52,298 nucleotides of DNA, taken from a virus (Duplodnaviria > Heunggongvirae > Uroviricota > Caudoviricetes). The stretch covers positions 1-52,298 of the IMG/VR virus record IMGVR_UViG_2721755498_000006. One strand, given 5' to 3'. The notes beneath the pieces are model-generated. The model was given only the letters and a program-made list of their open reading frames with translations. It did not search any database and was not told the origin of the DNA. Shown piece after piece: positions 1 through 33,144 of the stretch. Position 1 is the stretch's first letter. Each line of letters starts with the position of its first letter. A program made the position numbers and the translations under genes.

Positions 1-3000
1 ATGCTGAAACGTCTGTTAAGTAAACTGACGGGAAACCGTCAGCAGATAGAACATCACCTAAAAAATCAGTACCAGGTTGAGGAAAACGGACTTAGCTTTC
101 CGCTATCGCTGGTTGATGATTCGCAGCTTTGGGCACTGGCATCCTGGCTAGAACAACTGGCTGAAGAAGACTATCTGATATCACTTACAGACCGGTGGTT
201 GTTGAGTTGGGACGCACTGTATCGCCTGCTGGAGGATGAGGAACATGCCAGCAGCCTGCCTCTTATCGGTGTACCTGACGTACTGCCTTTACGCGCAAGC
301 CTGAGTTCACGAGGAGCATTAAGCGATAGCGATTTTCGCGTCTGGATTGCTGAATGGGCTACGCTTCCAGCCCGCAAGCCGATCCGTTTCAGTCGTACCG
401 GTGCCATTTTAACCCATGAAAATCAGCAATACCTGTTATCGCGTGAAAACTGGGCACTCTTACAGGCAACAGAACAACTCAGTGCACAGAAAAATCAGAC
501 TCCTGGTGAAACCACTAACCAGTTGGGATGGGCCGCTATCCGCAAATGTGCGAAGCAAGCAGCCGCAAAATTTGATGATTATTTAGAAAAAACGCATGTC
601 GTCAAACCAACTTCATTGTCATTACGTCTGCGTAAAGCAACGGTTGCCGATACTGCTGTTATCGAAATTGAGCCCCATTTCGAGGACCAGCCTGCTAACT
701 GGCTAGGCAGTTTTGACAAAAACTCGCAGGTTCACGATAGCTACCGCATCCCTGGAGAGAATGGCGAACTCAGCCATGTCATTATCCCTCCCGAAGTGAA
801 AGAAGTCCTGAATTCAATACACTCGATTCCAGGCCGTCGAGTGGCCGGAAGCGAAGCGCTTTCCTTTGTTCGCAATCCTTATACCTTCCTGGGTGAAGAT
901 GCCGCCAGTGTTATTGCCCCTGAAGAACATGAACAGGCACTGTTTGATGCCAGGATTTTCTTTCATCATTTCAGGTTGATACCGCAACTGAATGCGGAAA
1001 ATAAGATCGCAGAAGTTACGCTGGTACTTGAGCCTGTTTCACCTGTTCCCCAGCCAGAAATCACTTTTGGGTTCTCAGCCCCCCGGGAGCTGGATAAATT
1101 CATACAGCAACTCGGTATTAGCGTCGCTGCACAGATGCCTGCCGGTTCATGGCAAGGTTACGAGCTGGAATTAAGTCAGTTCACTGAACAGCAGTGGCAC
1201 GATTGCCAGGCACTTCTAACTCGCTGGCAGCAAGAAATAGAAGGAAAAGAATTTAGCGATGTGCTGGATATTGCGAAGTATGGCGATCGCGTGATTGGCA
1301 TTGGTGAATTTGAAAAAATCTCCTCTCCCTGGCTGACCAAAGCGCAGAGTGAAAACTGGCTTCCAGATGACATCGATTTCTCCGCGTTTTCAGTCGAAAC
1401 ACTGTCTGGCTGGCAACCTGAAAACCTTCACCATTTCGATGAACTGCAGGAGAGAATTACTCAGGCAGAAGCTGTAGGTGAAACGCATATCACCGCACCA
1501 TGGAATGACAGCCAATTACCGTTGGATGCTGCTAAAACCTTCAGTAAGAACTGGGAAAAACAGCAAAGCACTGCAAATGAATCTCAAGGCAACGTTGCAG
1601 ATAAAACGGCCCGAGCCGTACTCAAAATTGAGCAGAATATTGAAGAAACGGCCTACATCAAACAGCGCCGCAATTCACTCCTCAATGCGCGTCATGCCGA
1701 GCCTGAAATTCCTCTGAGCCTTAAAGAGCATATCCGACTCAAAGACCATCAACGTGAAGGCGTAGCCTGGCTCCAGCAACTCTTCCTTCGTTCACCTGAG
1801 GAAACCGCAGGTTGCCTGCTGGCGGATGATATGGGGCTTGGGAAAACGCTGCAAATTCTGAGCTTCCTGGTATGGTTCATTGAAAAATTCCCGCAAGAAC
1901 CGCCCAGTCTCATTGTTGCTCCTGTCTCTCTTTTAGATAACTGGGAACGTGAACTGGACAATTTCTTCTATACCGCAGGAATACCGGTATTGAAATTGTA
2001 TGGCGAGACCATTAAAGCGGTGAAATATCCCAAACAGGCTATCCCTGCTCATCTGCAATCTCAGGGGATCAAAAACCTGCTTAAACCTGGCTGGCAGGGT
2101 GAGGCGAAAATCATCCTGACAACCTACGAAACGCTTCGCGACCAGGAGTTTTCTCTGGCACGCCAGCCGTGGTCCATTATGGTGTGCGACGAGGCACAAA
2201 AAATAAAAAACCCAGCTGCGTTAATCACACATGCGGCCAACGCGGTACAAGCCAGGTTTAAAGTGGCATGTACAGGAACACCTGTCGAAAACACACTTGT
2301 CGACCTGTGGAGCTTATTTGATTTTGCCCAGCCAGGATTGTTAGGGGCACTAAATGAATTTGGTAAACACTATGTTCGCCCCATCGAGAACGAAGATGGC
2401 CGCGATACGGAACGGTTGGAAAGCCTGCGAGCGCTGATAGAACCTCAGACTTTACGCCGAACCAAAGAAGAGGTTGCGCGTGATTTACCTCAGAAAATTG
2501 AAGTGGAAAGCTGCAAGCAATTGACGTTGTCTGGCGTGCAAAAACAGCTCTACCTTTCGTCCGTTGCAAATTGGCAACAACAGCAAGCACTGAGCGAAGG
2601 GATGCAGCAGGCCGGAACCGGTATGTTAGGTTTGTTACACCGACTGAAACTCATCTGTGCACACCCTGCAGTAGTTAATCCAGAACCACGTTTTCGTGAT
2701 AACTCACCCAAGCTTAACTGGCTGCTGAAAATACTCGCAGAACTAAAACACACCACGAAAGATAAGGTCATTATTTTTACGGAGCTTCGAGATTTACAGC
2801 GCGAACTTCAACATGCGATCCACCAAAAGTTTGGTTTCCGCCCTGTCATTATCAATGGTGATACCAGCACTAAAAGTCAAAGTCAAAACAGCCGCCAGCG
2901 CCTGATTGATGATTTTCAGGCTCAGCCTGGGTTTGGGGTGATTATTCTCTCTACGGTTGCCGTCGGATTCGGCGTTAACGTCCAGAAAGCCAATCATGTT

Positions 3001-3243
3001 ATTCATTTCACTCGCTGCTGGAACCCAGCCAAAGAAGATCAGGCAACAGACCGGGCGTACCGAATTGGGCAAACTAAAGATGTGTATGTCTATTACCCGA
3101 CGGTGAAGGACACTGAAATCACCACATTTGAAGAAACACTGGATGACCTTCTGCAGCGTCGACGTGCATTGGCCAGAGATATGCTCTGCGCTACTCCCGA
3201 TTTGAGTGGTGCGGATTTTGAGGCCATTTTGAAGGGGGCTTAA
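1..3243 (+). CDS. SNF2/Swi2-family helicase-ATPase with ~580-aa N-terminal domain of unknown function; ORF begins at the first base of the window
   Basis: 1080-aa ORF; motifs LLADDMGLGKT (motif I), VCDEAQKIKN (DEAQ box) and QATDRAYRIGQ (motif VI) in the C-terminal half; no motif recognised in the N-terminal half; not RapA-like at the N-terminus. Confidence 0.85.
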   Translation: MLKRLLSKLTGNRQQIEHHLKNQYQVEENGLSFPLSLVDDSQLWALASWLEQLAEEDYLISLTDRWLLSWDALYRLLEDEEHASSLPLIGVPDVLPLRASLSSRGALSDSDFRVWIAEWATLPARKPIRFSRTGAILTHENQQYLLSRENWALLQATEQLSAQKNQTPGETTNQLGWAAIRKCAKQAAAKFDDYLEKTHVVKPTSLSLRLRKATVADTAVIEIEPHFEDQPANWLGSFDKNSQVHDSYRIPGENGELSHVIIPPEVKEVLNSIHSIPGRRVAGSEALSFVRNPYTFLGEDAASVIAPEEHEQALFDARIFFHHFRLIPQLNAENKIAEVTLVLEPVSPVPQPEITFGFSAPRELDKFIQQLGISVAAQMPAGSWQGYELELSQFTEQQWHDCQALLTRWQQEIEGKEFSDVLDIAKYGDRVIGIGEFEKISSPWLTKAQSENWLPDDIDFSAFSVETLSGWQPENLHHFDELQERITQAEAVGETHITAPWNDSQLPLDAAKTFSKNWEKQQSTANESQGNVADKTARAVLKIEQNIEETAYIKQRRNSLLNARHAEPEIPLSLKEHIRLKDHQREGVAWLQQLFLRSPEETAGCLLADDMGLGKTLQILSFLVWFIEKFPQEPPSLIVAPVSLLDNWERELDNFFYTAGIPVLKLYGETIKAVKYPKQAIPAHLQSQGIKNLLKPGWQGEAKIILTTYETLRDQEFSLARQPWSIMVCDEAQKIKNPAALITHAANAVQARFKVACTGTPVENTLVDLWSLFDFAQPGLLGALNEFGKHYVRPIENEDGRDTERLESLRALIEPQTLRRTKEEVARDLPQKIEVESCKQLTLSGVQKQLYLSSVANWQQQQALSEGMQQAGTGMLGLLHRLKLICAHPAVVNPEPRFRDNSPKLNWLLKILAELKHTTKDKVIIFTELRDLQRELQHAIHQKFGFRPVIINGDTSTKSQSQNSRQRLIDDFQAQPGFGVIILSTVAVGFGVNVQKANHVIHFTRCWNPAKEDQATDRAYRIGQTKDVYVYYPTVKDTEITTFEETLDDLLQRRRALARDMLCATPDLSGADFEAILKGA

Positions 3244-3764
3244 CCGATACGAGTGGCAATACCACCAGCAGTCGAACCGATTCATTTGAAACGACACGTA
3301 GCCGCGATGGATCTGTATCACCTACCGACAGCTTGGGAAAGTCCCGAATTACAAATGTTCAGGGGAATACCATAACCTGCCGGACTTATTCGTTTGGAAC
3401 GACGTGTTACGACTTAGTCCGAGGGAAACATGCCAGGTAAAAACCGAATATCCATCCTCAGCTTTAGCAAATACCTCCCCATACTCGCTACTTCATATTG
3501 AGAAGATATTGTGTTGCTCATATTGCTTTGAGCATGCTCTTCAGCGTTTACATGTGGATCGTACTACCCTGATGATCCGATGCGTTGTTTACTGCTTTTA
3601 ACCTCTATATACAAAACCCCCACTAAATATTTTTCTGAGACTAACGGTAAATCATTATCTATCATGTAGTTACGATAGAATTGCATGTATCTGGCACAAA
3701 ATAAGGTTTCATTACGTTCTATCTTGTTAAATATAAAGGGATCATTTCCTCCCAAAGTCACAAT

Positions 3765-4478
3765 CTACAGGAACGGTTTCAATAACATCGGATCAATGAT
3801 CCCCTCTGGAAAATCGTAAAGATGCTGACGCGCTGTCGTCTCCTTCAGTCCCGCTGCTTTAGCAAAATCGCTGACGGAGTAGCCTTCAGGCCACCAGCTC
3901 TGATAGTAAATATCAAAATACTGCCCCCACTCTGCGCTCATCGGGCGTCGTGATAGCTGTCGGGCAGCAGATTTCTGAGTCAGTTGATATTTCACAATAT
4001 ATTCACCAACGCTAAGACCATTCTCGACTTTTTCGCGCTGAAACTGGCGACGATGGTAAACCCAGAACAGCGCCCTAAGCGATGCGCCACCAGCTTTATG
4101 CAGCGCATTCCAGGCTCTGCGGTGCGGTATCCTGTAGCGTTGCGCGTATTCGGTTTGTGTAATGCCATGCAGAATCGCTTCACGACGATAATTTTGCTTG
4201 TGCCAGGCCCAGTCAATCTTCCAGCGGTCGCATCGCTCGCTGTAGTCCTGAGCTCTTTTCTGGCGGGCAACAGGCAACTTCAGAAAGTTTTCAAAGAGTG
4301 TATCCAGCGAGCACGCAACCGGATGGATATGCTGCGTTTGCAGACGTATCTCATTGGGCGTAAGTGGGCGATATTCGAGCCCCGTTAGACGTTCCAGCCG
4401 CCATTCATGATAGTTTTTTCGACGACGTCTATTCCCGGCATACTTCAAACGATACAGTGCCTGTTCAGCGTATGACAT
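3765..4478 (-). CDS. hypothetical protein; C-terminal ~55 aa paralogous to the C-terminus of the upstream 360-aa protein
   Basis: 237-aa ORF; 14-nt overlap with upstream gene (translational coupling); shared C-terminal block (W..YFD.YY..WP.G.SV...A...L...TAR..L.D.P). Confidence 0.5.
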   Translation of the reverse strand: MSYAEQALYRLKYAGNRRRRKNYHEWRLERLTGLEYRPLTPNEIRLQTQHIHPVACSLDTLFENFLKLPVARQKRAQDYSERCDRWKIDWAWHKQNYRREAILHGITQTEYAQRYRIPHRRAWNALHKAGGASLRALFWVYHRRQFQREKVENGLSVGEYIVKYQLTQKSAARQLSRRPMSAEWGQYFDIYYQSWWPEGYSVSDFAKAAGLKETTARQHLYDFPEGIIDPMLLKPFL

Positions 4479-5547
4479 ATTGAATCTCCTTTTGAAGCCA
4501 ACCCCTCAGGATGCCAGGTGAGATAACTGCTGGTGGATAATCGCAGAGATAACGCCGGGCTGTTGAAGGATTTAAATCGTGCCAATTACAGTACTGAGCG
4601 ACGCTGACTCCGCAGGGCCAGTAATTGTCGTAATAGCGATCGAAATGCCGTAGCCAGTGAGGAGATAGTTGAGGTTTTTCAGCTGCTTTTCCGCGCTGAT
4701 ACAGCTTCAGTAAACGCTGAATGCTGCGAATCTGGCTATTTGTTTCATAATCCAGAGAGTCAATCTCTGCGGGTTCATTATCACCGAGAAATAACGGGTC
4801 AAGCTTACCTGGCAGCGGACAGTAACGTTCGGCAGGTGGCTGGCATTGCTTGAGTTTGGCTGGAGTCCTGGGTTTAGGCTTTTGTTGCTTCAGTACTTTG
4901 TAGTGCTTGCGTCCGTACAACGGAATATGTTTTGCGATTCCGGTCTTAGTGGCGTATTTAGCGAAATAGCTCAACCTTAACAGAAGCTCCCCCAGGGTCT
5001 GCGAATCGCGCTTATGGACCATGTAGTATCCGTTTTTGGGAAACCAAACTTTCCCGTTAGTTGCCGAACTCCAGGTCTTCTCCACCAGCCCATTCAATAC
5101 CTTTGGTGTACGTATGTGGTTCCCGTCCACCATGAGCACACAGTGATAGTGCTGCGCTGTCGCTTTGTCATGCTCACGAACCCAGAATATATCGAAAAAA
5201 GACTTTGGATAACGAGCACGTAATACCTGGGCTAATTGCTGGCAGAAGTCCGAAATAACCTGATTGTCATCTGTATAGCTCTTGAGATGTAAATCATAGC
5301 GAACAGCCAGAAAACGCGAAGTCCGCAGATAGGTTTGATTCACCGTATCAAAAAGGGCTTCCATGATCCTGGAATCATACTCTCCCTCTGCATGAAGTAT
5401 CGGCCAGAACACTTCGTCATACAGAAAGTATCCTTGAGCATTAATCCACTGAGCTGCTTGCGAGGCCGGTATATTATTAATTACCGATGGTTTCTCGAAC
5501 TGATGATCTCTATATTTTTCTAATTTATTCATTGAGTTACACAACAC
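4465..5547 (-). CDS. HUH-motif rolling-circle Rep-like protein (inovirus gpII / YfjJ-YagK-like as I recall the family)
   Basis: 360-aa ORF with HYHCVLMV (HUH) and downstream YFAKYATK (YxxK) motifs; directly downstream of alpA as in CP4-type islands; family name from memory, not searched. Confidence 0.5.
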   Translation of the reverse strand: MLCNSMNKLEKYRDHQFEKPSVINNIPASQAAQWINAQGYFLYDEVFWPILHAEGEYDSRIMEALFDTVNQTYLRTSRFLAVRYDLHLKSYTDDNQVISDFCQQLAQVLRARYPKSFFDIFWVREHDKATAQHYHCVLMVDGNHIRTPKVLNGLVEKTWSSATNGKVWFPKNGYYMVHKRDSQTLGELLLRLSYFAKYATKTGIAKHIPLYGRKHYKVLKQQKPKPRTPAKLKQCQPPAERYCPLPGKLDPLFLGDNEPAEIDSLDYETNSQIRSIQRLLKLYQRGKAAEKPQLSPHWLRHFDRYYDNYWPCGVSVAQYCNWHDLNPSTARRYLCDYPPAVISPGILRGWLQKEIQYVIR

Positions 5548-5599
5548 TTCATTCAGTGCTAATACAGCGTTTTAATCTGTAATTGTATTTCACGTTGTT

Positions 5600-5872
5600 T
5601 CACTGGATAAAAAAAAGCCGGACAAACCGGCTTAGGATGCAAAATGAATCTAATAAGTGTGATTTACTCAACCACTCCTCATACTGGCTGGCAGTCCAGC
5701 CGAGTGTTCTCCCTTGAATTTTACGGGGCTCAGGAAAAACCCCCTCATTCACCCAACGCCAGAGAGTAGTACGGCTGACTGCCAGCAGCTCAATCATGTG
5801 GTTGATTCGAATCAATCGCTGGGGCTCATGGAAGAAACGGATATTGCTTGAAAAGGTGTTTTCTTGTTCCAT
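5600..5872 (-). CDS. alpA: AlpA-family HTH regulator (prophage/island excision regulator type)
   Basis: 90-aa ORF; core RLIRINHMIELLAVSRTTLWRWVNEGVFPEPRKIQGRTLGWTASQYEEWL matches the AlpA pattern. Confidence 0.65.
   Translation of the reverse strand: MEQENTFSSNIRFFHEPQRLIRINHMIELLAVSRTTLWRWVNEGVFPEPRKIQGRTLGWTASQYEEWLSKSHLLDSFCILSRFVRLFFIQ
5609..5632 (-). terminator. intrinsic terminator (AGCCGG-N5-CCGGCU followed by U8) lying inside the last codons of the alpA ORF
   Basis: hairpin plus U-run read on minus strand; ORF stop codon is ~7 nt beyond the U-run. Confidence 0.5.
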
Positions 5873-5993
5873 AAAGATTCCTTAAATCAGGAGTAACGAT
5901 ATGAAACAAGAGTAATTTTCTGATCGCGTGAGGTCGTGCATACCTTAGCAATGGAATCCGAATACCTTTACTATTTAGCTGATAAATATAACT

Positions 5994-6851
5994 TTATTTT
6001 TTACTCTTTTTCCGTTTTTCGTGTCCGGCAGTACGTAATGATTCGAATCCTTGAAAGGTTTCATCCTGAAGGATATTTCTTGTCTCGCGTAAATTTCGTT
6101 TGATAACCTCTGCGCTATGCGGAGGCTCCTTAATGGTAGGCCAGAAAAATGCCGCATACTTATAGAGCAGTTTTTCGAGATTACTGGCATTTGGCAGGCA
6201 ATGACCATAGCTATCAGGCTTGAGCTTACCCTCTGCATCCAGCTTGTAGAGTATAGCGATGACTGCCCGATAGACTTCTTCACGCATTGCAGCATAGGAC
6301 TCTCCTCGTGCTGCAGGTTCACGGGCAGCGGCTAGCAGCTTATCCCTCTCAACTTTCAGGCTCTCAATCTCCTCCTCAAGTTTTCTCACATAATCGCTGA
6401 CAGCAGGAGCTGGGGATTTTTCAATATCAATGCCCAGTACCCGGATAATATCGGCACGGCGCAGTGCGAACTGCTCCAGATCGGCTTCACCAAGGGGGTA
6501 TTTTTGTACTGAAGTGATCATCTCTTCGGGGCTGTCATAACGCCCGTTAGTCACCCTAAGCAATGCAGGAGTTAACTCTGGTCGTCCACTGGAATAATCA
6601 TACTTTGGTATAAATCCAAACTCTCGCCATGAGTCCTGAAGAGATTCACGTTTGTAAAGAGGAGGCTTATGTTCATTCAGGCATTTGAGTAGCTGAAGGC
6701 TGAGCACATTAAGCGATTGATCCGGGAATCGTTTTTGCAGTGCTATGTAAAGCTCGTAAATAGAAATAAACCCAGTATCCGCTTCTGCTACCTGGCGCTG
6801 CTTTTGTCTTTGCTGCTCAATAATCTCATCAAAACTCATTTTCAAACCCAT
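5994..6851 (-). CDS. hypothetical protein (predicted coiled-coil, Lys-rich C-terminus)
   Basis: ORF track 5994..6896; start moved to MGLKM preceded by GGAGAAG; no recognised motif. Confidence 0.4.
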   Translation of the reverse strand: MGLKMSFDEIIEQQRQKQRQVAEADTGFISIYELYIALQKRFPDQSLNVLSLQLLKCLNEHKPPLYKRESLQDSWREFGFIPKYDYSSGRPELTPALLRVTNGRYDSPEEMITSVQKYPLGEADLEQFALRRADIIRVLGIDIEKSPAPAVSDYVRKLEEEIESLKVERDKLLAAAREPAARGESYAAMREEVYRAVIAILYKLDAEGKLKPDSYGHCLPNASNLEKLLYKYAAFFWPTIKEPPHSAEVIKRNLRETRNILQDETFQGFESLRTAGHEKRKKSKK

Positions 6852-7077
6852 CAAACACTTCTCCGATACGGCGGCACATTCTGCAACACCATGCATTATA
6901 TAGGGATTTTATTCACGCGTTCGGGAATGAAACTACGATACTACCCAACTGATTGTCAGATGATTAGCGGAAAATGGTGGTTGGCTATGCCGTGTTAAAC
7001 AAGTACGCCAGTAAGTACGCGAAAAGAAATTCAGTAGATTTTATTGAAAGAGACTTGAGCTAACTTATTGATTTTAA

Positions 7078-7126
7078 TGGTGCCGATAATAGGAGTCGAA
7101 CCTACGACCTTCGCATTACGAATGCG
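7078..7126 (-). repeat. att copy: 49-nt direct repeat of the thrW 3' end (plus ~17 nt of matching flank at 7061-7077)
   Basis: tggtgccgataataggagtcgaacctacgaccttcgcattacgaatgcg identical to 50855-50903. Confidence 0.9.
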
Positions 7127-7184
7127 TAAATTGATCTTGTAAAATCAATACCTATCGAATTTAAATGGATTTTTTGCCACAATA

Positions 7185-8288
7185 TTGCCACAGTTCGTTA
7201 GGAATCAGACAGAAATGGCGACTATACGCAAACGTGGTAACTACCAATGGGAAGCTCAAATCCGTAAACGTGGTTTTCCCTCTCAAACCAAAACCTTTAA
7301 CACCAAAGTAGAAGCAGAAGCTTGGGCCAAAATGATCGAGTCAGAAATGGCGAGAGGAGTTTGGCTTAGCCGCAGCGAAGCGGAATCTACGACATTGTAT
7401 GAAGCCCTAACGCGATATGAAAAAGAGATTGTTCCCGACAAAAAAGGGGCAGTGCAAGACCGATCATTGGTGCGGATACTAAAAGCCACTCAGCTGGCGA
7501 AAAACTATATGGCCAGCATCAGGAGTGCCGATGTCGCCAAGCTGAGAGATGAATGGTTGAAAATCTATGCTCCTGCAACCGTTTTAAGGCGTTTGGCCTT
7601 ACTTTCTCATGTATTCAATGTTTCGCGGAAAGAATGGGGCATGGAGAGCCTGCTGAACCCCGTAGAGGCCATTCGCAAACCCCAACCCAAGAACTCCAGG
7701 ACCAGACGCCTGGAAGCGCTGCCTGTAGTTTCTGAGAAAACCGGTGTTACGTCAGGAAAGCAAATAGCCAACGAGATCGAACATATCATCGCCGCAACAC
7801 ATTCATTAGTATTGCCAGCAATCATTCTTCTGGCGTTAGAGACAGCCATGCGCCGTAGCGAAATCGCAGAGCTTCGATGGCGCTTTATCGATCTTGATCG
7901 GCGAGTTGCACATCTGCCGGATACTAAGAATGGTAATGCCCGCGATGTCCCTTTATCAACGAAAGCCATTACGATACTGTCCAGTCTCAAGGAACATTCT
8001 AAGCCAGCTGCTGATAAGGTTTTTGATATGCGTGCAGACGCGATTACCCGAGCTTTTGACCGAGCTGTAAAACGAGCCAGAGAACGATACGAGAAAACAA
8101 ACTCATTATGTGATGAATCTTTCCTTAAAGATTTAAGATTTCATGACCTTCGACATGAAGCAACTTCTCGACTTGCTGAAATTTTCCCTATGCATGAACT
8201 AACCAAAATTACAGGACATAAAGATCCAAGAATGCTAATGCGGTATTATCATCCAAAAGCTGAAGATTTGGCGTTAAAGTTGAAATAA
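7185..8288 (+). CDS. int: tyrosine recombinase / integrase of the middle integrative element
   Basis: R..HxxR..Y catalytic signature (ETAMRRSE, HDLRHEATS, MRYYH); starts ~60 nt from att copy; likely true start at MATIRKRG (~7215); TGCCACAAT-A-TTGCCACA arm-type repeat just upstream. Confidence 0.85.
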   Translation: MPQFVRNQTEMATIRKRGNYQWEAQIRKRGFPSQTKTFNTKVEAEAWAKMIESEMARGVWLSRSEAESTTLYEALTRYEKEIVPDKKGAVQDRSLVRILKATQLAKNYMASIRSADVAKLRDEWLKIYAPATVLRRLALLSHVFNVSRKEWGMESLLNPVEAIRKPQPKNSRTRRLEALPVVSEKTGVTSGKQIANEIEHIIAATHSLVLPAIILLALETAMRRSEIAELRWRFIDLDRRVAHLPDTKNGNARDVPLSTKAITILSSLKEHSKPAADKVFDMRADAITRAFDRAVKRARERYEKTNSLCDESFLKDLRFHDLRHEATSRLAEIFPMHELTKITGHKDPRMLMRYYHPKAEDLALKLK

Positions 8289-8297
8289 GGACGTTGT

Positions 8298-8987
8298 ATG
8301 GATTATAAAAATAAGTTAGTTGATGCATCACCAAAATTAAACAACCCTCAACTATTGGCTATAATATACTTAATACCTTTTGGATACTTGATTGTAGAAA
8401 ACCCATTATGGCTAGAAAATATATACATTGCCGCTCCAATTTTCCTATCATCTATAGCTTTATTAACCAGTGTATACATAGGATATCGTGATTTATTAAA
8501 TAAAGTATTTAATAATGCAGTAGTTAAATGGGGCGTAACTGGCTTTACATATTCCGTATGCTTATGGATCGCAAAGTTTAAGCTTGACATAGCTTATGGT
8601 ATAGTCCCAGAAAACCTTAATTACTCGACATTAGCTTATGCTTTCATGCTCTCATTTCCAATAGGGGCAATGATTTGTGCAATTACAGTCTATATATACA
8701 TATTTTTGCGAGATGTATCCCCAGCAAAAATAGTAATATCCTCTATGATTTCAGTATATATTGGAAGCTTGGCTCAACATCATATACAGGTGAACAATCT
8801 TCCTGAAAAAATAATATTAATAGGACTTATAATTATGGTCCCCTATAACATGGTCAATTTAGCTAGTTCATTAGTTATTAAAAGGAAATTTAATTTTAAT
8901 CGTTTAGTATCAGGCTTATCCCTTTTTGCTGTGTCAGTTGCTCTTTTTATTATTAGCATGACAGCGGTAATGACTCCAACTTATTGA
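8298..8987 (+). CDS. AT-rich polytopic membrane protein, 3' end interrupted by IS1
   Basis: 229-aa hydrophobic ORF; reading frame runs into IS1 left end at 8966 so the last residues are IS1-encoded. Confidence 0.5.
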
Positions 8988-9484
8988 TAGTGTTTTATGT
9001 TCAGATAATGCCCGATGACTTTGTCATGCAGCTCCACCGATTTTGAGAACGACAGCGACTTCCGTCCCAGCCGTGCCAGGTGCTGCCTCAGATTCAGGTT
9101 ATGCCGCTCAATTCGCTGCGTATATCGCTTGCTGATTACGTGCAGCTTTCCCTTCAGGCGGGATTCATACAGCGGCCAGCCATCCGTCATCCATATCACC
9201 ACGTCAAAGGGTGACAGCAGGCTCATAAGACGCCCCAGCGTCGCCATAGTGCGTTCACCGAATACGTGCGCAACAACCGTCTTCCGGAGCCTGTCATACG
9301 CGTAAAACAGCCAGCGCTGGCGCGATTTAGCCCCGACGTATCCCCACTGTTCGTCCATTTCCGCGCAGACGATGACGTCACTGCCCGGCTGTATGCGCGA
9401 GGTTACCGACTGCGGCCTGAGTTTTTTAAGTGACGTAAAATCGTGTTGAGGCCAACGCCCATAATGCGGGCTGTTGCCCGGCAT
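8981..9484 (-). CDS. insB: IS1 InsB (transposase made as InsAB' by -1 frameshift)
   Basis: 167-aa [29 protein letters not shown]...; overlaps insA. Confidence 0.95.
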
Positions 9485-9678
9485 CCAACGCCATTCATGG
9501 CCATATCAATGATTTTCTGGTGCGTACCGGGTTGAGAAGCGGTGTAAGTGAACTGCAGTTGCCATGTTTTACGGCAGTGAGAGCAGAGATAGCGCTGATG
9601 TCCGGCGGTGCTTTTGCCGTTACGCACCACCCCGTCAGTAGCTGAACAGGAGGGACAGCTGATAGAAACAGAAGCCAC
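9403..9678 (-). CDS. insA: IS1 InsA
   Basis: 91-aa [43 protein letters not shown]... Confidence 0.95.
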
Positions 9679-9809
9679 TGGAGCACCTCAAAAACACCAT
9701 CATACACTAAATCAGTAAGTTGGCAGCATCACCTCAATCCGCATGACTTTAAAAAAGACAATTTTTAGAAATAAGCCGGATAAAAAAATAGCTTTATCCG
9801 GCACTCATA

Positions 9810-10760
9810 TTACAACCAGTTCTTCCGCTTAAAGTACAGATACGGTGCCAGGCCCGCGAGGATCATAAAGATAATCGCGGCAGGGTAGCCGAAGCTCCAC
9901 TTCAGTTCTGGCATAAACTCAAAGTTCATGCCATAGCTGGAAGCAACGAGCGTCGGCGGCAGGAATACCACGGATACCACCGAGAAGATTTTGATGATGC
10001 GGTTCTGCTCGATGTTGATAAAACCCATTGCCGCCTGCATCAGGAAGTTCACCTTCTGGAACAGGGATTCGTTATGCGGCAGCAGGGATTCGATATCTCG
10101 CAGGATTTCACGCGCCTGCTCCAGTTGCCCACCCGGTAAACGCGCTTTACGCACCAGGAAGTTGAGCGCGCGCTGGGTATCCATCAGACACAGGCGAACT
10201 TTCCAGCCGATATCTTCCAGTTCCGCCAGAGTGGAGAGCGCCTCGTCGTACTCATCGCCCTGATGCCCTTCCATAATCACCCGGCTCAACTGCTCCAGGT
10301 CGCTATAGATATTTTCAATTTCATCTGCCAACTGTTCGATTTTGGTTTCGAACAGATCCAGCAGCAACTCGTAGGCGTTACCGTCTACCATCGACTGGCT
10401 ACGGGCACGCATACGATACAGACGAAAAGCGGGCAGTTCACGCTCACGCAGAGTAAACAGACGACCATCACGGATGGTAAATGCCACAGTGGAGTTACCG
10501 GCGTGATCTTCCGCATCTTCAAAGAAGAAGAAGGAGTGAATATGCAGGCCGTCGTCGTCTTCAAAGAAACGTGCCGATGCTTCGATGTCTTCCAGTTCCG
10601 GGCGGGTTGCCAGGCTCTGGCCAAGTTCAGATTGTAAGCGCAGTCGCTCGTCGTCGTCCGGTTCGACAAGATCAATCCATACTGCATTTACAAGGGGTTG
10701 TGACTCTTCGACTTCCAGCCGGGTCAGTCGGTTATTTTCCAGTTGAAATGCGCTCAGCAT
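9810..10760 (-). CDS. corA: magnesium/cobalt transporter CorA
   Basis: [34 protein letters not shown] ... [11 protein letters not shown] ... matches E. coli CorA as I recall it; GMN motif present. Confidence 0.95.
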
Positions 10761-11129
10761 GACCGGGACTCCCAATGCTTAAAATATCGGACAGTTCGGT
10801 GGGCACACAGAAACAAATTGGGTTTCAGACCATTAAACAGCCTGACTCAGCGCGACGGGAAAAATTGAGGTCGCTGACAACCGCTAAGGCTATCAGCAAA
10901 AAGGGATAGCCTTAGGAGTTGATCCTGGATGACAGGATAGTGAGCCAGTATCTACTGGGTGTGTCCAAGGCGAATGTCCTCTTAGAGTGATCGTGCGCGC
11001 ATGTTACGCCAGCAAAATTTTGCCGTCAACACGCAACAGAACACCACAGAACAATAGTTGAACTTCGCGCTTTTTGGTACTCGTCAAGGTCGCTAACAGG
11101 ATAAAAAAATCCCACATCCAGGACCTATA

Positions 11130-11417
11130 ATGGCGCATCAGCTACTCATTGGTAAAGGAATGATCACCTTGAATCTCAAACGGATTTTTCTCGCCCTCAC
11201 CTTACTTCCCTTGTTTGCTGTTGCCGCTGATGATTGCGCACTCTCAGATCCGACGCTGACCGTACAGGCGTATACCGTTAATCCTCAAACAGAGCGGGTG
11301 AAAATGTACTGGCAAAAAGCCAATGGCGAAGCGTGGGGAACGTTACATGCTCTGCTGGCGGATATTAATAGTCAGGGTCAGGTGCAGATGGCGATGAACG
11401 GCGGCATCTATGATGAA
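11130..11417 (+). pseudogene. 5' fragment of a signal-peptide protein gene (yigE-like by position upstream of corA) truncated by IS1
   Basis: ORF with signal-peptide-like N-terminus runs into IS1 copy 2; identification as yigE is inference from K-12 gene order. Confidence 0.45.
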
Positions 11418-11471
11418 GGGATGCTGCCAACTTACTGATTTAGTGTATGATGGTGTTTTTGAGGTGCTCCA

Positions 11472-11747
11472 GTGGCTTCTGTTTCTATCAGCTGTCCCTC
11501 CTGTTCAGCTACTGACGGGGTGGTGCGTAACGGCAAAAGCACCGCCGGACATCAGCGCTATCTCTGCTCTCACTGCCGTAAAACATGGCAACTGCAGTTC
11601 ACTTACACCGCTTCTCAACCCGGTACGCACCAGAAAATCATTGATATGGCCATGAATGGCGTTGGATGCCGGGCAACAGCCCGCATTATGGGCGTTGGCC
11701 TCAACACGATTTTACGTCACTTAAAAAACTCAGGCCGCAGTCGGTAA
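11472..11747 (+). CDS. insA: IS1 InsA
   Basis: identical translation to 9403..9678. Confidence 0.95.
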
Positions 11748-12169
11748 CCTCGCGCATACAGCCGGGCAGTGACGTCATCGTCTGCGCGGAAATGGACGAA
11801 CAGTGGGGATACGTCGGGGCTAAATCGCGCCAGCGCTGGCTGTTTTACGCGTATGACAGGCTCCGGAAGACGGTTGTTGCGCACGTATTCGGTGAACGCA
11901 CTATGGCGACGCTGGGGCGTCTTATGAGCCTGCTGTCACCCTTTGACGTGGTGATATGGATGACGGATGGCTGGCCGCTGTATGAATCCCGCCTGAAGGG
12001 AAAGCTGCACGTAATCAGCAAGCGATATACGCAGCGAATTGAGCGGCATAACCTGAATCTGAGGCAGCACCTGGCACGGCTGGGACGGAAGTCGCTGTCG
12101 TTCTCAAAATCGGTGGAGCTGCATGACAAAGTCATCGGGCATTATCTGAACATAAAACACTATCAATAA
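11666..12169 (+). CDS. insB: IS1 InsB
   Basis: identical translation to 8981..9484. Confidence 0.95.
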
Positions 12170-12964: not shown

Positions 12965-14752
12965 ATGGAACTGAAATATAGACCCGAAATTGATGGGTTG
13001 AGAACATTAGCTGTTTTACCTGTTATCTTTTTTCATGCAGGCGTTCAATGGATTCCTGGAGGTTTTCTTGGAGTAGATGTTTTTTTTGTTATTAGTGGTT
13101 TTTTGATTACCAGCATTTTGCTAAAAGAATGCAGCAATGGAACATTTACATTCTCTGGATTTTATGAGAGAAGGGTTCGCAGAATTGCACCAGCATTAAT
13201 TTTAATGACATCAGTAACATTCATTATATCATTATTTGTGATGGTCCCATATGACCTAAAAAATCTTGGTCAATCAGTAGTTGCAACTATTTTTTCAGCA
13301 AACAATATATTGTTGTACCTAACATCAGGATACTGGTCTACAGCATCTGAATTTAAACCATTATATCACACATGGAGTCTGGCTGTAGAAGAACAGTATT
13401 ATCTTGTGGCACCTATAATAATATATATTATTTATTCAATTAATCATAATAAATTAATAAAAAATAGTTTTATATTCATGCTGTTAGTATCAATTGCCAG
13501 TTTTTTATTTGCAGCAATTGAGACAACACATAATAGAGAGTTTTCATTCCTCATGCTACCCTCTAGAGCCTGGGAGATCGCACTCGGCGGGATTGCTGCT
13601 ATTGCTCATTCGAAAATAAAAAGAAAAAGCAATGCATTATCATTCATTGGTTTTTTGTTAATAATATTTAGTTATTTTCTTGTTAGAGGAAAAATATCAC
13701 ACCCAGGACTCGAAACATTGATGCCAGTGATTGGCACATGTTTATTTTTGATGCATGCCAACTCACATAAAGGCGTAGGAAAGATAATGTCAATAAAACC
13801 AATGGTATTATGTGGTATGATAAGTTACTCATTATACCTTTGGCATCAGCCAGTTTTTGCATTTATAAGACTAAACTCTCAGTTCGAGCCATCAACAATA
13901 TATTTTATTGTTTCTATACCTTTTATTTTTATTATATCTTTTGCATCATATTTCTTTGTTGAGAAACCATTTAGAAACAAGAAAAAAACTTCTACAAAAA
14001 AGATTGTATCATACGCAATAGCATCGTCGTTAGTGTTATCAATATCTGGTTGGTTGATGCACAAGACATATGGATTGCAGAATATCAGGCCAGAGCTTGC
14101 CTATGGCGGCAATCCTCAGGAGTATGTGGACAGCCCTAAACGATTAAAGAATATTGACTTTTCAGATAATGGAAAGAAAATATTAATCATGGGTAATTCA
14201 TATGCGCGAGATATCATTAATGTAATATCTACTAAATTAAACCTTGATGATCTTAATATTGTTTATTTTGAAGGAAATTGCTACGAATCAATAAATAACT
14301 CTCACAAATTAGATTATTACTTGAAAGACGCAAACATTATTATTTACTCTGACAACTGGGGTGGGGAGGAGTATAATAACAGCGTAGAGAAATTAAAATA
14401 CTGCTACGATAACGTAAAGTTAGCATCCAACGCTAAGGTATACATGGTAGGGACAAAAAACTTTGGGTATAACAATAACTTTGCCACTAACTTATCTAAA
14501 AATGATCGAATCTTAGCGAAAACATACCCACTATCAAAGTATTTACAGTTCAATAATGATGCAAAATTAGAGTTAGGAAATGATTATATAGATGTATTTA
14601 GTCTTATTCAAGATGAGAATGGGATGGTTAATGTTTTTGATGGTGATGGTAAGTTTTTATCATATGATACCAATCACTTAACTAAATATGGGGCAAGTTA
14701 CTTAGGTGATATTTTATCAAAAAAAACAGATTTGTTTCATAGTTTAAAATAA
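12965..14752 (+). CDS. O-antigen acyltransferase (acyltransferase-3 membrane domain plus C-terminal SGNH-like domain; OafA/Oac type), lysogenic conversion gene
   Basis: 595-aa AT-rich ORF; N-terminus ...LRTLAVLPVIFFHAGVQ...GVDVFFVISGFLIT..., multiple TM segments, long C-terminal soluble domain; located between tailspike and att as P22 gtr / Sf6 oac. Confidence 0.8.
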   Translation: MELKYRPEIDGLRTLAVLPVIFFHAGVQWIPGGFLGVDVFFVISGFLITSILLKECSNGTFTFSGFYERRVRRIAPALILMTSVTFIISLFVMVPYDLKNLGQSVVATIFSANNILLYLTSGYWSTASEFKPLYHTWSLAVEEQYYLVAPIIIYIIYSINHNKLIKNSFIFMLLVSIASFLFAAIETTHNREFSFLMLPSRAWEIALGGIAAIAHSKIKRKSNALSFIGFLLIIFSYFLVRGKISHPGLETLMPVIGTCLFLMHANSHKGVGKIMSIKPMVLCGMISYSLYLWHQPVFAFIRLNSQFEPSTIYFIVSIPFIFIISFASYFFVEKPFRNKKKTSTKKIVSYAIASSLVLSISGWLMHKTYGLQNIRPELAYGGNPQEYVDSPKRLKNIDFSDNGKKILIMGNSYARDIINVISTKLNLDDLNIVYFEGNCYESINNSHKLDYYLKDANIIIYSDNWGGEEYNNSVEKLKYCYDNVKLASNAKVYMVGTKNFGYNNNFATNLSKNDRILAKTYPLSKYLQFNNDAKLELGNDYIDVFSLIQDENGMVNVFDGDGKFLSYDTNHLTKYGASYLGDILSKKTDLFHSLK

Positions 14753-14800: not shown

Positions 14801-16693
14801 CTAAGCCACCTCACCCCTCCATGAGCAATCAACAATACCTCCGCGCACCATCTTCCACCGCATGTTGTACGATGCCGAAGGAACAAGCTTTATACCAACA
14901 CCAAGATTGGGAACTGTTTCAACTGATTTAATCCAAGCGTTATTTGAATTACTGTACGTGAATGTTAATTGCTCTGTATTAGTGTAGAAGTCATCAGTGC
15001 ATGTTGTTATTGCCGCTGAAGTATTTGCGTTATCCGCCCCGTTATAATAATACAGCTCAAAGGCTATGTAGCCGTGGTTCTTCATCCTCGTAGCAAACAC
15101 GCCGCCCGTGTTTCTTGCCGCGATACCACCCTGTTTGAATGTGGTGTTACGCTCACCTTGCACGCTTCCCGCATTGATAGTCTGGAACGGAGTAACATCA
15201 GCAGAACTGTACTTGTCATTGTACAACTGCATAGCCCCGCCCATTTTATCTGTGTAAAACACATAAGATTCAAGGTGGTAAGGGGATTGGTTTTTAATGG
15301 TATTATACGATTTTATCTCGTTATAGAAATCGGTGTCATTTGTAATATCCTTAAAGGAACTTATGATTAGGTTACTTTCCCACGCAAAGGCTACATAGCT
15401 TCCATCACCCATACCAAAAAACTCCTTAGCAAAATTTATTTGCTTTGTTTTATCAGAGAAGCTTGTTGGTTCAGTGAACATTCCGAGACAAGGCACTATC
15501 TTTGAATTTGGGGATTTATATTGCATTTCAGCCCAGCACAGTACAGCGGTCCTCTTGTTTTCGGCAGAATCCCTAGAAGAGTATGCATATGCATCCACAA
15601 AAATCAAATCGTACCCAACACCGTTATACCCAGAAGGGACTGTTTGGTTATCAAACGAAAAAATCCCGTTGTCAGCTATACATAAAGCTTTACTGGTAAA
15701 TGCCTTGAATGCATTTATACGAGTGGCTTGAGCAGTTGCAGATACCGAATGGTTTTGCGGTTCATCAAACAAGTAATAGCCGATAACGCAATCTCTGCCG
15801 TCAAGGTCTGTAGCCGGGGTGTTTGTCTGCCCGTACACAGTACCACCAAGTATAAGTTTCAATCCAACAGCTTCCGCGGCGTTACAAGCTTTTTCCATAT
15901 TCCCGCCGTTTGTCCACGCTTGACCGTAGTGGATTAGTGTATTAAACCCCGCGGTTTTTAGTTGTAACATGTCACAAATATCAAACACGCGATGAACGTA
16001 TACAGCCTTCATTAGTGAATGGTCTACAGGTATTTCACTATCAAGTTCACATGGAACGTTTGGTAGTCTTGTGTATGTAATCGTTGCTTTTCCGGTAATC
16101 CTTGCACCTTGTGGCCAGTCAAAACTAGATAATGTCGTGGCACCGCTGATATGCGCAACCCCTGTTTTACCTATGGCTGCAAGAACATAAGGCTTAGCGT
16201 CCTCTCCACTACCATATATATATCCATACAAAGAAATATCAGACCAATTATAGCTAGAATTATACTTTATTGAGTCTATTTCTTCTTGTACTGTTTTACC
16301 AGTTGCGGTCCCTACAAGAGATGCCCCGTTATCTGAAGAGATAGTCTGCCTAAACTGATCCGGGTCATACTTAAGCACATTAGGAAAATAGAACTGCTGC
16401 GCCCCATACGCATCATAAACAGCCATAGAATGGCCTTGCACAGTTACGAACTTGGCAATCTGTCCGTTATATACCGGATATCCAGCGGCGTTAATGATGA
16501 TTGGTTGCGGAACAGGAACGTGAGAACCGTCTTCATTCTCTACATAAATCTGAATCTGGTTTTCAGGATTTACCGGGTCAGTGTCAATTTTTCCGATATA
16601 AATTTTGCCATTGGCTACGGCTTTAAAAGAACGCGCCATAGTGAAGAGTTGCGAAGGCATGCTTACCACAATATTTGCGGTGATATCTGACAT
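14801..16693 (-). CDS. tailspike protein: P22 gp9-like N-terminal head-binding domain fused to a different receptor-binding/enzymatic domain
   Basis: [59 protein letters not shown]... matches P22 tailspike N-terminus; remainder unlike P22 endorhamnosidase as I recall it; start set at internal Met with GGAG SD. Confidence 0.9.
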
Positions 16694-16814
16694 TTCATTG
16701 CTCCAGACGAATGATATGATGCAACCATGATGTGATTGCATACCGAAATGGTACTATTGAGTATTTATCCAGTAGGTTACGATGCCATTCCACCCAACTG
16801 GTGAGGCATCAAGG

Positions 16815-26739: not shown

Positions 26740-28908
26740 TTATTGAGGTGTCTCGGCTACTCCGCCGGAGGGGATTTGAACTTGACGCATAAGATTCGCG
26801 AAATCCATGCGTTGTGAATGAGTCTGGTCTGCATCTTTAAGAAGCAGCTCAGCGTTAGCACGAGCATCTTTGCTGCGCTGTTGCTGGAATTGACCTACGA
26901 GCTTGAGGTACTCACGCAGTTCTGCCTGCTTGTCGAGGTCCATATTGTTGAATATTTCTGCAATCTTCGCGGCGTTGAGTTGGTTTTGGGCTTCAACCTT
27001 GGCAGCTTCAACCTGAATCTGCGCCTGTTGGTTCTCTGCCTTGAGCAATTCAGCCTGACCTTGCAGAAGGATACCCTGCGCCTGAATTTGCTCTGCTGAT
27101 GGCTGCTGCGGCTGTTGTTGTGCCTGCTGTACCATCTCCATCTCTTCAGGTGTTTCTGGTTTCTTCAGCCCCATCATCACCAGTTGCTTGTTCGCGTACT
27201 CTCGCATCATCTCAACGCCTTTACCGTCAAGCAGCGTGAAGTATTGCAGCATCAGCATCTGGAACTCTGGAGTACCTTGCGGAACCTTGGTGAGTAACTC
27301 CTGAATCTCTGCGCGGTTCTGTTCCTTCATGCTCTGGAAGGATGGTCCGACGTCTGTATAGCACTCATAGCGACCGCGAATGTCGTTGAGTGTGACCACA
27401 TTGCCGGACTGGTAATCGACAACTTGCGCGTAGAGTTGAACGTCTTTCTCGCTTCCATCTTCAAGTGTCAGCGTTACATGACGAGGAACGTCATAAATAT
27501 CGTTGACCATTGAGGCATAAATCTCGCCATCACGTCGCATTGCGGTAGCCAGGTTATCCTGAAACACGTATGTCTCAAGGTCTGCCCGCATGTTCAGTTG
27601 ATTGACGGTATCGAAAGCGACCTGACCATTTGCCGCCTGCGCATCCACGCCAAGACTAGCCACCTCTTTCACTGCGTTGGTGGCAGCCTCAAGCATGTAA
27701 GCGTTGGCTTGCGGCACTTCAGGGTTTTCCATGTAGGAGATTGGACCAATCGGCAGGTCGTTACCGTTTTCATCGGTCTTGTTCTGCAGATAGTACGGAT
27801 AGTCATCATTTCCACCGTACATGTATTCGTAGCCTTCGATTTGCTCAGGGAAGAAGGTCGGTTTCTTCTTCGGTGAACGAGCAACAATATCGGCGTTGAA
27901 TGACATGATCATGTTACGAAGGCGTTGACCGTCTTTCGTCAGCCTTACCACTCCTTCGTAGCACTCCTTGTCACCAGCGAATGACCATTCGCCGTACACA
28001 GGAACTATTGGGATATGCTCTCCGGCTATCTTCTCGCGGTCTTTCAGTATCTGCGTGCAGGTGATGATCGACTTATACACACGCCGACGCTTCACCTTGC
28101 GCTCTGCCACCTTAATGAATCCACGATTAGCCAGGTCGTCGATGACGTCTTTGATATCCTGTTGGTAATAGCTGACCGGCTCACCTGTCAGCGGGTCGCG
28201 GTAGATGAAGACTTTCTCCTTCTTCTCTTCGACCTCGTAATACTCAGCGACGTAGACGACATCATTCGATACCCACGGAAACAGCCATGTATCGTTCGGA
28301 TTCTGGAAAGATGGCAGGGTGTCAGGATCAATACCGTAATCCTCTGCGAACTCTTTCCAGCCATTGCGCGACAAGGCGTTAATCACCGTGCAGTGCTTAG
28401 CGTCGCTCTTATCCATCTGCTTGCTGTTGGCGTCCCATATGACGTGTGAGCAGGCTTCATGAATTGGCAGGCGTCGAATTACCTGATTGTTGCTTGTTGG
28501 ATCGTTGTCTTCGTACTGCGTGACCAGACGCCATGCGCCAACGCCGGACTCTATCTGCTCACGAACGCCAACGTTAACGGCAATCTTTGCCGTGTTATGG
28601 CGCATATCAGTACGATACATACCCATCAATACATCGGCTGCATCAGGATTAGCACCGTCTTTTGGTCGGAAGAGAACGTCGATAGGGTTCCGGCGCATCT
28701 CTGCGACCAGCTTCCTGACCACCGGGCGGACAACATCGAATTGTCCGCGATATTGCAGGGTGGTGTAGTTTGATAGCCAGTCATCCCATTGCGACACTCG
28801 GCTAAAATACAGGTCATTTGTCGCCTCGGTTCTGGCCTCATCGCTTGCTGCCCAATCCCTGTCAAACCGAAGGAGAATGGTTCGCAATTTGTCGTCTTGG
28901 TCGGCCAT
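26740..28908 (-). CDS. portal protein gp1 (P22-like, with C-terminal barrel)
   Basis: 722 aa; ...[33 protein letters not shown]... matches P22 portal as recalled. Confidence 0.95.
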
Positions 28909-33063: not shown

Positions 33064-33139
33064 TGGTGCTGGTTAACGGACTTGAACCGCTACCCATTCG
33101 CTTACAAGGCGACTGCTCTACCATTGGAGCTAAACCAGC
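33064..33139 (-). tRNA. tRNA-Thr (anticodon UGU) in the Q-S interval
   Basis: hand-folded cloverleaf: 7-bp acceptor GCUGGUU/AACCAGC, D-stem GCUC/GAGC, T-loop UUCAAGU, anticodon loop CUUGUAA, 3' CCA encoded. Confidence 0.75.
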
Positions 33140-33144
33140 ATATT

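Follow-up and report, generated by a model that had tools for sequence, protein, structure and literature searches.

A candidate rolling-circle-type initiator and its separately encoded C-terminal paralog in a thrW-associated defence island of Escherichia coli

Two linked genes, rep and orf237, at positions 3765-5547 of a 52,298-nucleotide (nt) stretch of DNA in the IMG/VR virus collection (record IMGVR_UViG_2721755498_000006; "the window" hereafter means this whole stretch), belong to a defence island of Escherichia coli that is flanked by copies of thrW. We propose, with about an even chance of being right, that they encode a rolling-circle-type initiator and a trans-acting partner that targets it to DNA. 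Many tRNA-associated defence islands carry an integrase and AlpA and no obvious transfer or replication machinery, and their persistence and spread are poorly understood; YagK/YfjJ or "Gp2-like" genes are annotated in such islands and have remained unstudied. The comparative analysis reported here yields a candidate origin, a candidate binding repeat at a fixed spacing from it, and an undescribed triple-repeat protein region that is either fused to the initiator or encoded separately. Within the searchable literature, the triple-repeat region with its separate gene, the series of architectures leading from fused to split, and the 15-nt motif (15-mer) with repeats at a fixed distance appear to be new.

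An initiator-like protein and a copy of its C-terminal half

The features of the two genes are as follows (aa, amino acids; HMM, hidden Markov model).

4465-5547, minus strand: rep, 360-aa open reading frame (ORF) with a GTG start at 5547 (ORF list, Pfam, alignment, model)
5143-5151, minus strand: HUH motif codons H133-Y134-H135, invariant in the alignment, on predicted β-strand 132-141
4945-4968, minus strand: YxxK motif 3, Y194-F-A-K197-Y-A-T-K201 (alignment and model)
4789-4803, minus strand: LDxLF motif of Rep, L249-D-P-L-F253, with G247, L249 and D250 near-invariant and F253 invariant
4495-4665, minus strand: module M3 of Rep (residues 295-338) and conserved tail to W350-L351, the block common with ORF237
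4465-4491, minus strand: rep/orf237 junction, with the 14-nt overlap (4465-4478) and an AAGGAG Shine-Dalgarno sequence (4486-4491) in the 3' end of rep
3765-4478, minus strand: orf237, 237 aa (ORF list, alignments, profile comparison)
4293-4307, minus strand: LDxLF motif of ORF237, L58-D-T-L-F62 (alignments)
4080-4217, minus strand: module M1 of ORF237, residues 88-133 (hhalign M1-M2 97.5%, M1-M3 96.8%; HMM)
3942-4079, minus strand: module M2 of ORF237, residues 134-179 (hhalign, HMM)
3768-3941, minus strand: module M3 (180-224) and tail (225-237, ..IDPMLLKPFL) of ORF237 (BLASTP, hhalign, HMM)

Both reading frames and their overlap are as described in a sequence-only reading of the window that preceded this work, and they agree with the RefSeq annotation of identical E. 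coli genomes. There, rep begins at the ATG at 5532 and its 355-aa product, WP_001037132.1, is labelled as YagK/YfjJ domain-containing or as inovirus-type Gp2, while the 237-aa product of orf237, WP_000119302.1, is "hypothetical".

The longer protein, Rep360, is made up of an HUH core (approximately residues 39-216), a linker, the LDPLF sequence, a single helix-turn-helix (HTH)-like module designated M3, and a C-terminal tail. It scores above the gathering thresholds of two Pfam families, PF11726 (YagK/YfjJ; 59.7 bits against a threshold of 25.8) and PF23343 (REP_ORF2-G2P; 29.9 against 27.8), which bears out the family assignment that had been suggested as a check. The sequences HYHCVLMV and YFAKYATK, earlier recognised as HUH and YxxK motifs, are both read directly in Rep360, and in an alignment of 17 relatives, with identity as low as 35%, residues Q132, H133, Y134, H135, Y194, K197 and K201 are invariant. 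Y198 is confined to the E. coli sub-lineage and is lacking in the rest of the family, which is therefore counted as one-tyrosine type. In an AlphaFold (AF2) model the core has a predicted local distance difference test score (pLDDT) >85 and strand 132-141 a pLDDT >90; the HYH triad lies on this β-strand and Y194 closes helix 182-196, consistent with the motif assignment, and the N-terminus is predicted to be disordered (pLDDT <50). Among predicted viral structures the top Foldseek match is an "Inovirus Gp2" protein, and the initiators of microviruses and of circular Rep-encoding single-stranded DNA (CRESS) viruses are also among the top matches, most of which are unnamed. A search of PDB sequences with profiles of the Rep and ORF237 families gave no meaningful match. 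On these grounds Rep360 is predicted, at roughly even confidence, to be a single-tyrosine HUH nickase acting through H133/H135 and Y194.

Rep360 might instead be a relaxase- or recombinase-like enzyme, either cutting the excised island so that it can be mobilised by conjugation or processing single-stranded DNA (ssDNA), with ORF237 as an accessory DNA-binding protein. That no replication helicase or primase of the island lies beside rep would agree with this possibility, which we nevertheless consider quite improbable: by structure and family Rep360 lies closest to viral replication initiators, genes for mobilisation, a coupling protein or type IV secretion are missing from the annotation of the island, rep-orf237 has no blastn match in a plasmid collection, and the 15-mer described below resembles a microvirus origin.

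ORF237 begins with a lineage-specific segment (residues 1-55), followed by LDTLF (58-62), three modules (M1-M3) and a tail. A C-terminal block of about 55 aa common to the two proteins had been noticed from the sequence, and it is real: the C-termini align with 22 identities in 58 positions (38%; BLASTP E 2e-12), the significant similarity on which the earlier claim depended, and an HMM of the module matches residues 295-338 of Rep360 at 3e-24. It is not, as had been thought, all that the proteins share, for the LDxLF motif is common to both, its L58 and F62 being invariant or nearly so across ORF237-type proteins, and ORF237 holds three copies of the module. These internal repeats, of about 45 aa each, are related to one another at 95-97.5% hhalign probability, and with profile HMMs of the individual modules Rep360 matches the M3 model only. 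The source of the remaining modules is indicated by longer relatives. Residues 56-237 of ORF237 align with the last ~180 aa of a 438-aa Salmonella Rep (E 4e-44) and of a 447-aa Rep relative (E 2e-38), and the C-terminal half of the long Reps (434-501 aa) consists of LDxLF, tandem M1-M3 and a conserved tail (..DPxLLKPWL). Judged by these alignments, the smaller protein is a true paralog of the Rep C-terminus, equivalent to everything in the C-terminal half of a long ancestral Rep but encoded separately. Its gene is also closely coupled to rep, as had been supposed, since AAGGAG sits 7 nt 5' of the ORF237 ATG in addition to the 14-nt overlap.

The modules M1-M3 are putative DNA-binding repeats of HTH-like type. 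ORF237 gave nothing at E <= 0.01 in Pfam, NCBIfam or PADLOC, a relaxed Pfam scan returned sub-threshold hints only, and no entry in these databases or in PDB covers the M1-M3 region. A word-indexed search recovered five relatives of ORF237, and HMMER, run exhaustively over 1.84 billion representatives, yielded only 21 clusters for the M1-M3 region; the domain family is thus narrow. The LDxLF motif and the extreme C-terminal peptide (4495-4533 in rep; 3768-3806 in orf237) are kept in both proteins. They look like docking motifs for a common partner, although no known motif class could be assigned to them.

Fused, duplicated and split forms of the putative initiator

Comparison of 50 fetched loci revealed several arrangements of the HUH domain and the M modules. 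In form (a), represented by Salmonella, Buttiauxella, Silvania and one Erwinia, the HUH domain is fused to M1-M3 and no related gene follows on the 3' side; a fused Rep of Chimaeribacter has M2-M3 only, likewise with no related ORF downstream. Form (b), seen in locus L039, combines a complete 501-aa Rep (Rep501) containing M1-M3 with a separate 211-aa M1-M3 protein. Form (c), that of the window, pairs an M3-only Rep with an M1-M3 protein of 234-240 aa and is found in E. coli, Klebsiella sp. BIGb0407, four Pantoea, an Erwinia metagenome-assembled genome and several IMG/VR contigs. In form (d), present in two independent genomes (L040/L041), the gene for a HUH-only Rep191 precedes that for a 167-aa M1-M3 protein by 3 nt, which suggests that the stand-alone protein supplies the C-terminal region in trans. 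Locus L032 has Rep219 and ORF205 (M1-M3) in different frames, separated by 13 nt; it was dropped as evidence of fission, a frameshifted fused gene being a possible explanation of the gap and the change of frame. The junctions of orthologous form (c) loci range from -14 to about +22 nt, so the 14-nt overlap is specific to E. coli and the tight linkage of rep to its paralog is general across this form.

Both genes are under purifying selection, with dN/dS of 0.08-0.33 for each, and they are inherited together: the trees of the Rep M3 and the ORF M3 mirror one another, indicating parallel divergence. The enterobacterial stand-alone ORFs form one clade (100/100 bootstrap). A single origin for all stand-alone ORFs is unsupported (21% bootstrap) and was not adopted. 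The simplest history compatible with the sequences would be a duplication of the C-terminal region into a gene of its own, after which the gene of the nuclease shed modules one step at a time; the duplication is tentatively assigned to the lineage of E. coli, Klebsiella sp., Pantoea and Erwinia, in which the Rep copy would then have lost M1-M2. That the module is instead a decaying relic, with ORF237 left over from a partial tandem duplication, strikes us as extremely improbable. Related loci do exhibit truncation (Rep343 of L037/L038) and loss of the partner, and YagK and YfjJ of E. coli K-12 reside in cryptic prophages, but besides the low dN/dS of both genes, seven species and 48 E. coli genomes carry the two ORFs intact, and the cis elements described below are conserved with exact spacing.

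A more serious rival concerns the sign of the effect of ORF237. In the Ff phages, the gene X protein is the C-terminal third of the gene II protein. It reportedly limits initiation (Fulford and Model 1984, 1988). By analogy, and in line with the regulator or decoy role suggested earlier from the sequence, ORF237 could be a gpX-like negative regulator or decoy that competes with Rep for origin sites, for a host docking partner or for both, its origin being a gene duplication rather than an internal start. The parallel lies in an initiator accompanied by a shorter protein that matches its C-terminal part and lacks the N-terminal part, and in the annotation of the Rep family as "inovirus Gp2-like". 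Competition is also compatible with the M3, LDxLF and tail elements common to the two proteins and with the tight coupling of their genes, which would favour co-expression. Yet the pair lacks the defining features of the gene II/X arrangement: gene X arises from an in-frame internal start and its product is identical to the gene II C-terminus, whereas ORF237 is read in another frame and is a paralog 38% identical to Rep; ORF237 holds two modules that the Rep of the window no longer has; and the island possesses no coat, assembly or ssDNA-binding genes. Moreover, the form (d) Reps, having no M modules, offer nothing to compete with, and loss of M1-M2 from Rep occurs specifically in ORF-bearing lineages, which suggests that the ORF took over a needed function. 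Because of the form (d) pairs and this loss, we favour a positive partner role for ORF237 and regard the decoy as unlikely.

A candidate origin at a fixed distance from tandem repeats

Alignment of the loci brought out three DNA elements between alpA and the HUH-encoding part of rep.

5471-5486, minus strand: 15-nt motif GG(T/A)(A/T)ATTnATAATAT, here CGGTAATTAATAATAT, inside rep codons 21-26 (S-V-I-N-N-I)
5583-5603, minus strand: tandem repeat GTGAAACAAC-GTGAAATACAA, two copies of the consensus TGnAACAA, 10-11 bp apart (locus alignment)
5605-5633, minus strand: terminator-like hairpin and T-run in the alpA-rep gap, kept in all related loci with compensatory changes in the stem

In a survey of 29 loci and eight further loci from the IMG/VR viral collection, the 15-mer occurs as a single copy per locus at a constant position relative to the HUH domain, in hosts ranging from E. 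coli to Shewanella, Colwellia, Thalassotalea, Pseudoalteromonas and Cellvibrio. Over 24 non-redundant loci, each of its 15 positions carries 1-2 bits of information and either flank about 0 bits. The motif is coding in enterics and mostly non-coding outside them; it lies 5' of the rep start in Chimaeribacter, Erwinia MMLR14, L032, L040/41 and marine loci, and it contains a rep-frame stop codon in Chimaeribacter and an in-frame stop in L015. Its conservation is therefore at the DNA level, which explains the presence of an invariant "INNI" within the disordered N-terminus of Rep.

Because of its phiX174-like sequence, its placement within the gene and the catalytic motif of the protein, we propose GGTAATTAATAATAT as a candidate nick site or origin core. 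The tyrosine motif of phiX174 gpA (FYVAKYVNK) is nearly identical to that of Rep360 (SYFAKYATK), and gpA also carries LHFHAVHF in the phiX174 record. The phiX174 origin, CAACTTG^ATATTAATAAC, lies inside gene A just as the 15-mer of the window is internal to its initiator gene, and the AT-rich cores of the two, CTTGATATTAATAAC in phiX174 (L-D-I-N-N) and TCGGTAATTAATAATATA in the window (S-V-I-N-N-I), both encode -I-N-N-. There the likeness ends. Beyond the motifs no homology between gpA and Rep360 is detectable; Rep360 is a one-tyrosine enzyme by family, Y198 not being conserved; the element in the window is a chromosomal island devoid of virion genes; and the phiX174 A* protein retains the nuclease and arises from an internal start, unlike ORF237, which has no nuclease and is the product of a separate gene.

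The TGnAACAA tandem repeat lies about 10-20 nt past the alpA terminator, and its two copies in the window lie 116 and 105 nt upstream of the 15-mer. Distances of 104-105 and 113-116 nt recur in every M-module lineage checked except L032, even though the intervening sequence has fully diverged and the rep start has shifted. None of the 11 HUH-only marine loci examined has the repeats. This pattern fits a division of labour in which the HUH domain would read the 15-mer and the M modules the TGnAACAA repeats. The count of ATGAAACAA across the whole window does not exceed chance, so the weight of this sequence rests on its positional conservation across loci; likewise, generic repeat finding for iterons in 3244-7184 gave chance-level short repeats only, and the cis elements emerged only through comparison between loci. 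The 520-bp gap between zorD and orf237 (3244-3764) was also considered as an origin and rejected for want of a counterpart in related loci, for which reason it is assigned to the cargo side; it contains a 41-nt direct repeat (3255-3295 and 3363-3403, 73% identical, 108 nt apart).

From these comparisons we propose the following sequence of events. Excision of the island by the integrase, promoted by AlpA, would precede initiation. ORF237, together with Rep through its M3, would bind the TGnAACAA repeats just past the alpA terminator, and the occupied repeats would position the HUH domain on GGTAATTAATAATAT, about 105 nt further on in the 5' end of rep. Rep would then nick this site on the excised supercoiled circle, and host enzymes would extend from the nick in rolling-circle synthesis. 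The resulting multicopy or concatemeric island DNA may favour both maintenance and phage-mediated transfer.

The same elements could serve transcription: ORF237 would then be mainly a transcription factor of the rep or alpA promoter, acting through TGnAACAA and taking no part in initiation. The repeats do cover the expected -35 region of a weak rep promoter, an inverted copy is found at 5901-5909, and in Enterobacter the slot of ORF237 is filled by an unrelated 185-aa protein with a weak MarR_2 match (E 0.052). We nonetheless hold this to be rather improbable, because the spacing from repeat to 15-mer is fixed to about 1 nt though the start codon moves, which argues for one composite element rather than a simple promoter, and because in the fused forms the modules normally act on the nuclease's own polypeptide.

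A number of observations weigh against an initiator with a positively acting partner. The form (b) locus, with a complete Rep501 and a separate M1-M3 protein besides, is hard to understand as complementation and fits a competing decoy. In form (e), that of Enterobacter, an M3-bearing Rep is followed by the unrelated protein, and in form (f), L037/L038, a truncated Rep has no partner gene at all; ORF237 is accordingly not universally required. The 15-mer includes a hexamer resembling a -10 box and might, in lineages where it precedes rep, act as a promoter or operator. Hairpins centred on it do not exceed shuffled controls in stability (z -0.2 to -1.9), so that no stem-loop is claimed there. 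The repeats overlap the -35 region of a plausible activator-dependent promoter and could alternatively be read by AlpA, and their association with M modules is confounded by phylogeny and has an exception in L032. The pair is found in 48 of 5,426 complete E. coli genomes, always chromosomal, in single copy and at least 99.8% identical, and this near-invariance leaves within-species data silent on function. Finally, the searchable literature contains no experimental paper on YagK/YfjJ proteins.

Regarding the Enterobacter protein (L033-L036; 9144-9701 / 9202-9759), whose MarR_2 match is below threshold, it is possible that it is a functional analogue of the M1-M3 paralog or the first cargo gene. 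Upstream of alpA in the window there are two AAGGTA repeats 22 nt apart (5941-5968; three in Pantoea), and the inverted copy of ATGAAACAA at 5901-5909 lies ~30 nt before the alpA start. The position of both is conserved in the alignment of related loci, and both probably serve alpA as operators or as parts of its promoter.

The thrW island, its relatives and its significance

The genes and boundary that surround the pair are listed below (att, attachment site).

1-3243, plus strand: zorD of a type I Zorya system, first cargo gene, convergent with orf237
5600-5872, minus strand: alpA (PF05930), 72 aa (5654-5872) in other genomes, 90 aa here
5994-6896, minus strand: first gene of the module, hypothetical, 285 aa in RefSeq, no family match
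7061-7126, minus strand: copy of the thrW 3' half and downstream bases, 66 nt with 1 mismatch, the original tRNA-proximal att junction

The location of rep and orf237 downstream of alpA, pointed out from the sequence, is that of a conserved module of an integrative island, in which a hypothetical gene (~270-300 aa) is followed by alpA, rep and, where present, the paralog. Of this island, only the thrW-proximal end falls within the window; the whole can be seen in strain STK77-E, where over ~25 kb, with thrW-derived direct repeats at both ends, it reads thrW, the hypothetical gene, alpA, rep, orf237, ZorDCBA, a type I restriction-modification (R-M) system, a UvrD-like gene, a 440-aa integrase and the thrW copy. 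The L037 island occupies the same site, spans ~10 kb between thrW-derived direct repeats and carries GmrSD instead. Elsewhere the cargo following the rep unit is BREX (L032), DUF7834-GmrSD (L037), type I R-M (L039), abpBA (CP4-57) or, in the window, Zorya, and such unlike defence cargo directly 3' of the initiator unit implies that cargo has been exchanged at that point. The 3' edge of the unit looks like a hotspot of cargo exchange; in L037 the cargo junction cuts off the 3' end of rep.

Compared base by base with HZ13 and STK77-E, the alpA stop codon of the window (5656-5654) is changed from TGA to TTA at 5655. The extended 90-aa AlpA reads through the terminator hairpin to a TGA in the first TGnAACAA repeat, and this change is the sole difference from strain HZ13 over 3.8 kb. 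A ~30-nt sequence near the thrW-proximal end (6993-7022) recurs beside the integrase-end att copy in other genomes (L006, 19214-19242; L037, 16175-16204; L038, 9112-9141). Once the island is an excised circle, copies of it would lie to either side of the att core, in the manner of integrase arm-type sites.

The earlier description of the locus as satellite-like found no support. The STK77-E island annotation lists no gene for capsids, packaging, a primase or helper interference, scans of the module genes with Pfam, PHROG and PADLOC found no packaging, capsid-remodelling, helper-interference or primase-helicase families, and the module proteins have no tblastn match in 50,697 phage records; with the plasmid search also empty, derivation from a satellite, a plasmid or a phage was rejected. 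The island does resemble phage-inducible chromosomal islands (PICI) and P4-like elements in having an integrase and an AlpA-family regulator followed by a replication gene, and in integrating at a tRNA or other conserved site. As points of difference, neither a primase-helicase (pri-rep or alpha) nor terS, genes for capsid redirection or helper interference, or a cos or pac feature was observed in it, and its replication gene is of HUH nickase type rather than a primase-helicase.

Closer parallels are found among islands known in E. coli K-12 and Pseudomonas. YagK (CP4-6) and YfjJ (CP4-57) of K-12 belong to the same family, PF11726, and have both the HUH motif (HYH) and Y-x-T-K. The yfjJ gene of CP4-57 is situated 3' of alpA in an integrase-bearing island, immediately ahead of the defence genes abpBA; in CP4-6, yagK belongs to an intF-bearing element at thrW in which neither alpA nor an adjacent defence gene is annotated. 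Unlike the pair in the window, YagK and YfjJ are HUH-only proteins of 208 aa that lack M modules, neither is accompanied by a paralog, and near the starts of yagK and yfjJ the 15-mer is only degenerate (AGGATACTATATG, AGGTATATATTATG). The Pseudomonas tmRNA islands I23, I44 and I55 have a tyrosine integrase at one end and Gp2-like and AlpA genes at the other, short direct repeats, and between the ends a variable cargo rich in defence systems (PMC12595487). Their excised form is a circle or a "linear concatenated polymer", and a jumbo phage transduces them; that study did not test what the Gp2-like gene does (PMC12595487). The E. coli island, as represented by STK77-E, has this layout of integrase, defence cargo, Gp2-like gene and AlpA with flanking repeats; it differs in genus and attachment site, and the Pseudomonas report describes neither a split initiator nor a C-terminal paralog (PMC12595487).

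The live thrW is at 50855-50930, separated from the 66-nt copy by a P22-like prophage and other material (~7.1-50.9 kb); the prophage lies within thrW (~7130-50855) and has displaced the defence island by ~44 kb, with the 66-nt copy staying behind as a trace. In addition to the features listed, it has a DnaB-like helicase and a CI-like repressor.

26740-28908: P22-type portal
14801-16741: tailspike with head-binding domain
33064-33219: prophage tRNA-Thr/Asn
49680-50840: prophage integrase adjoining the live thrW

An acyltransferase-3/SGNH fusion protein (12965-14752) adjoins the tailspike gene, an arrangement typical of prophage-encoded O-antigen acetylation (serotype conversion). A second gene for a tyrosine integrase (7185-8288, plus strand) has its start 55 nt from the thrW copy and is oriented away from that copy; next, in the region to 8987, comes a gene for a 229-aa membrane protein (GC 34%) that matches phrog_26661. 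An inverted pair of IS1 elements (insAB at 8981-9678, minus strand, and 11472-12169, plus strand) brackets a corA-like Mg2+ transporter gene (9810-10775) and a 102-aa ORF, and this unit (8981-12169) is composite-transposon-like and situated in the junction region of prophage and island.

If the proposed mechanism has wider validity, rep, the paralog, the TGnAACAA repeats and the 15-mer could be a self-contained replicon common to cargo-swapping defence islands across Gammaproteobacteria, amplifying the excised island into concatemers, a generalisation that we regard as possible and rather doubtful. Were it true, concatemers would let unrelated headful-packaging phages move the islands in the absence of transfer genes, and the different initiator forms would be snapshots of an enzyme splitting into catalytic and targeting subunits. 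The series from fused through duplicated to split genes provides a clean natural example of a multidomain initiator divided into subunits, and the candidate origin and its fixed-distance repeats offer a testable idea of how E. coli defence islands may copy themselves.

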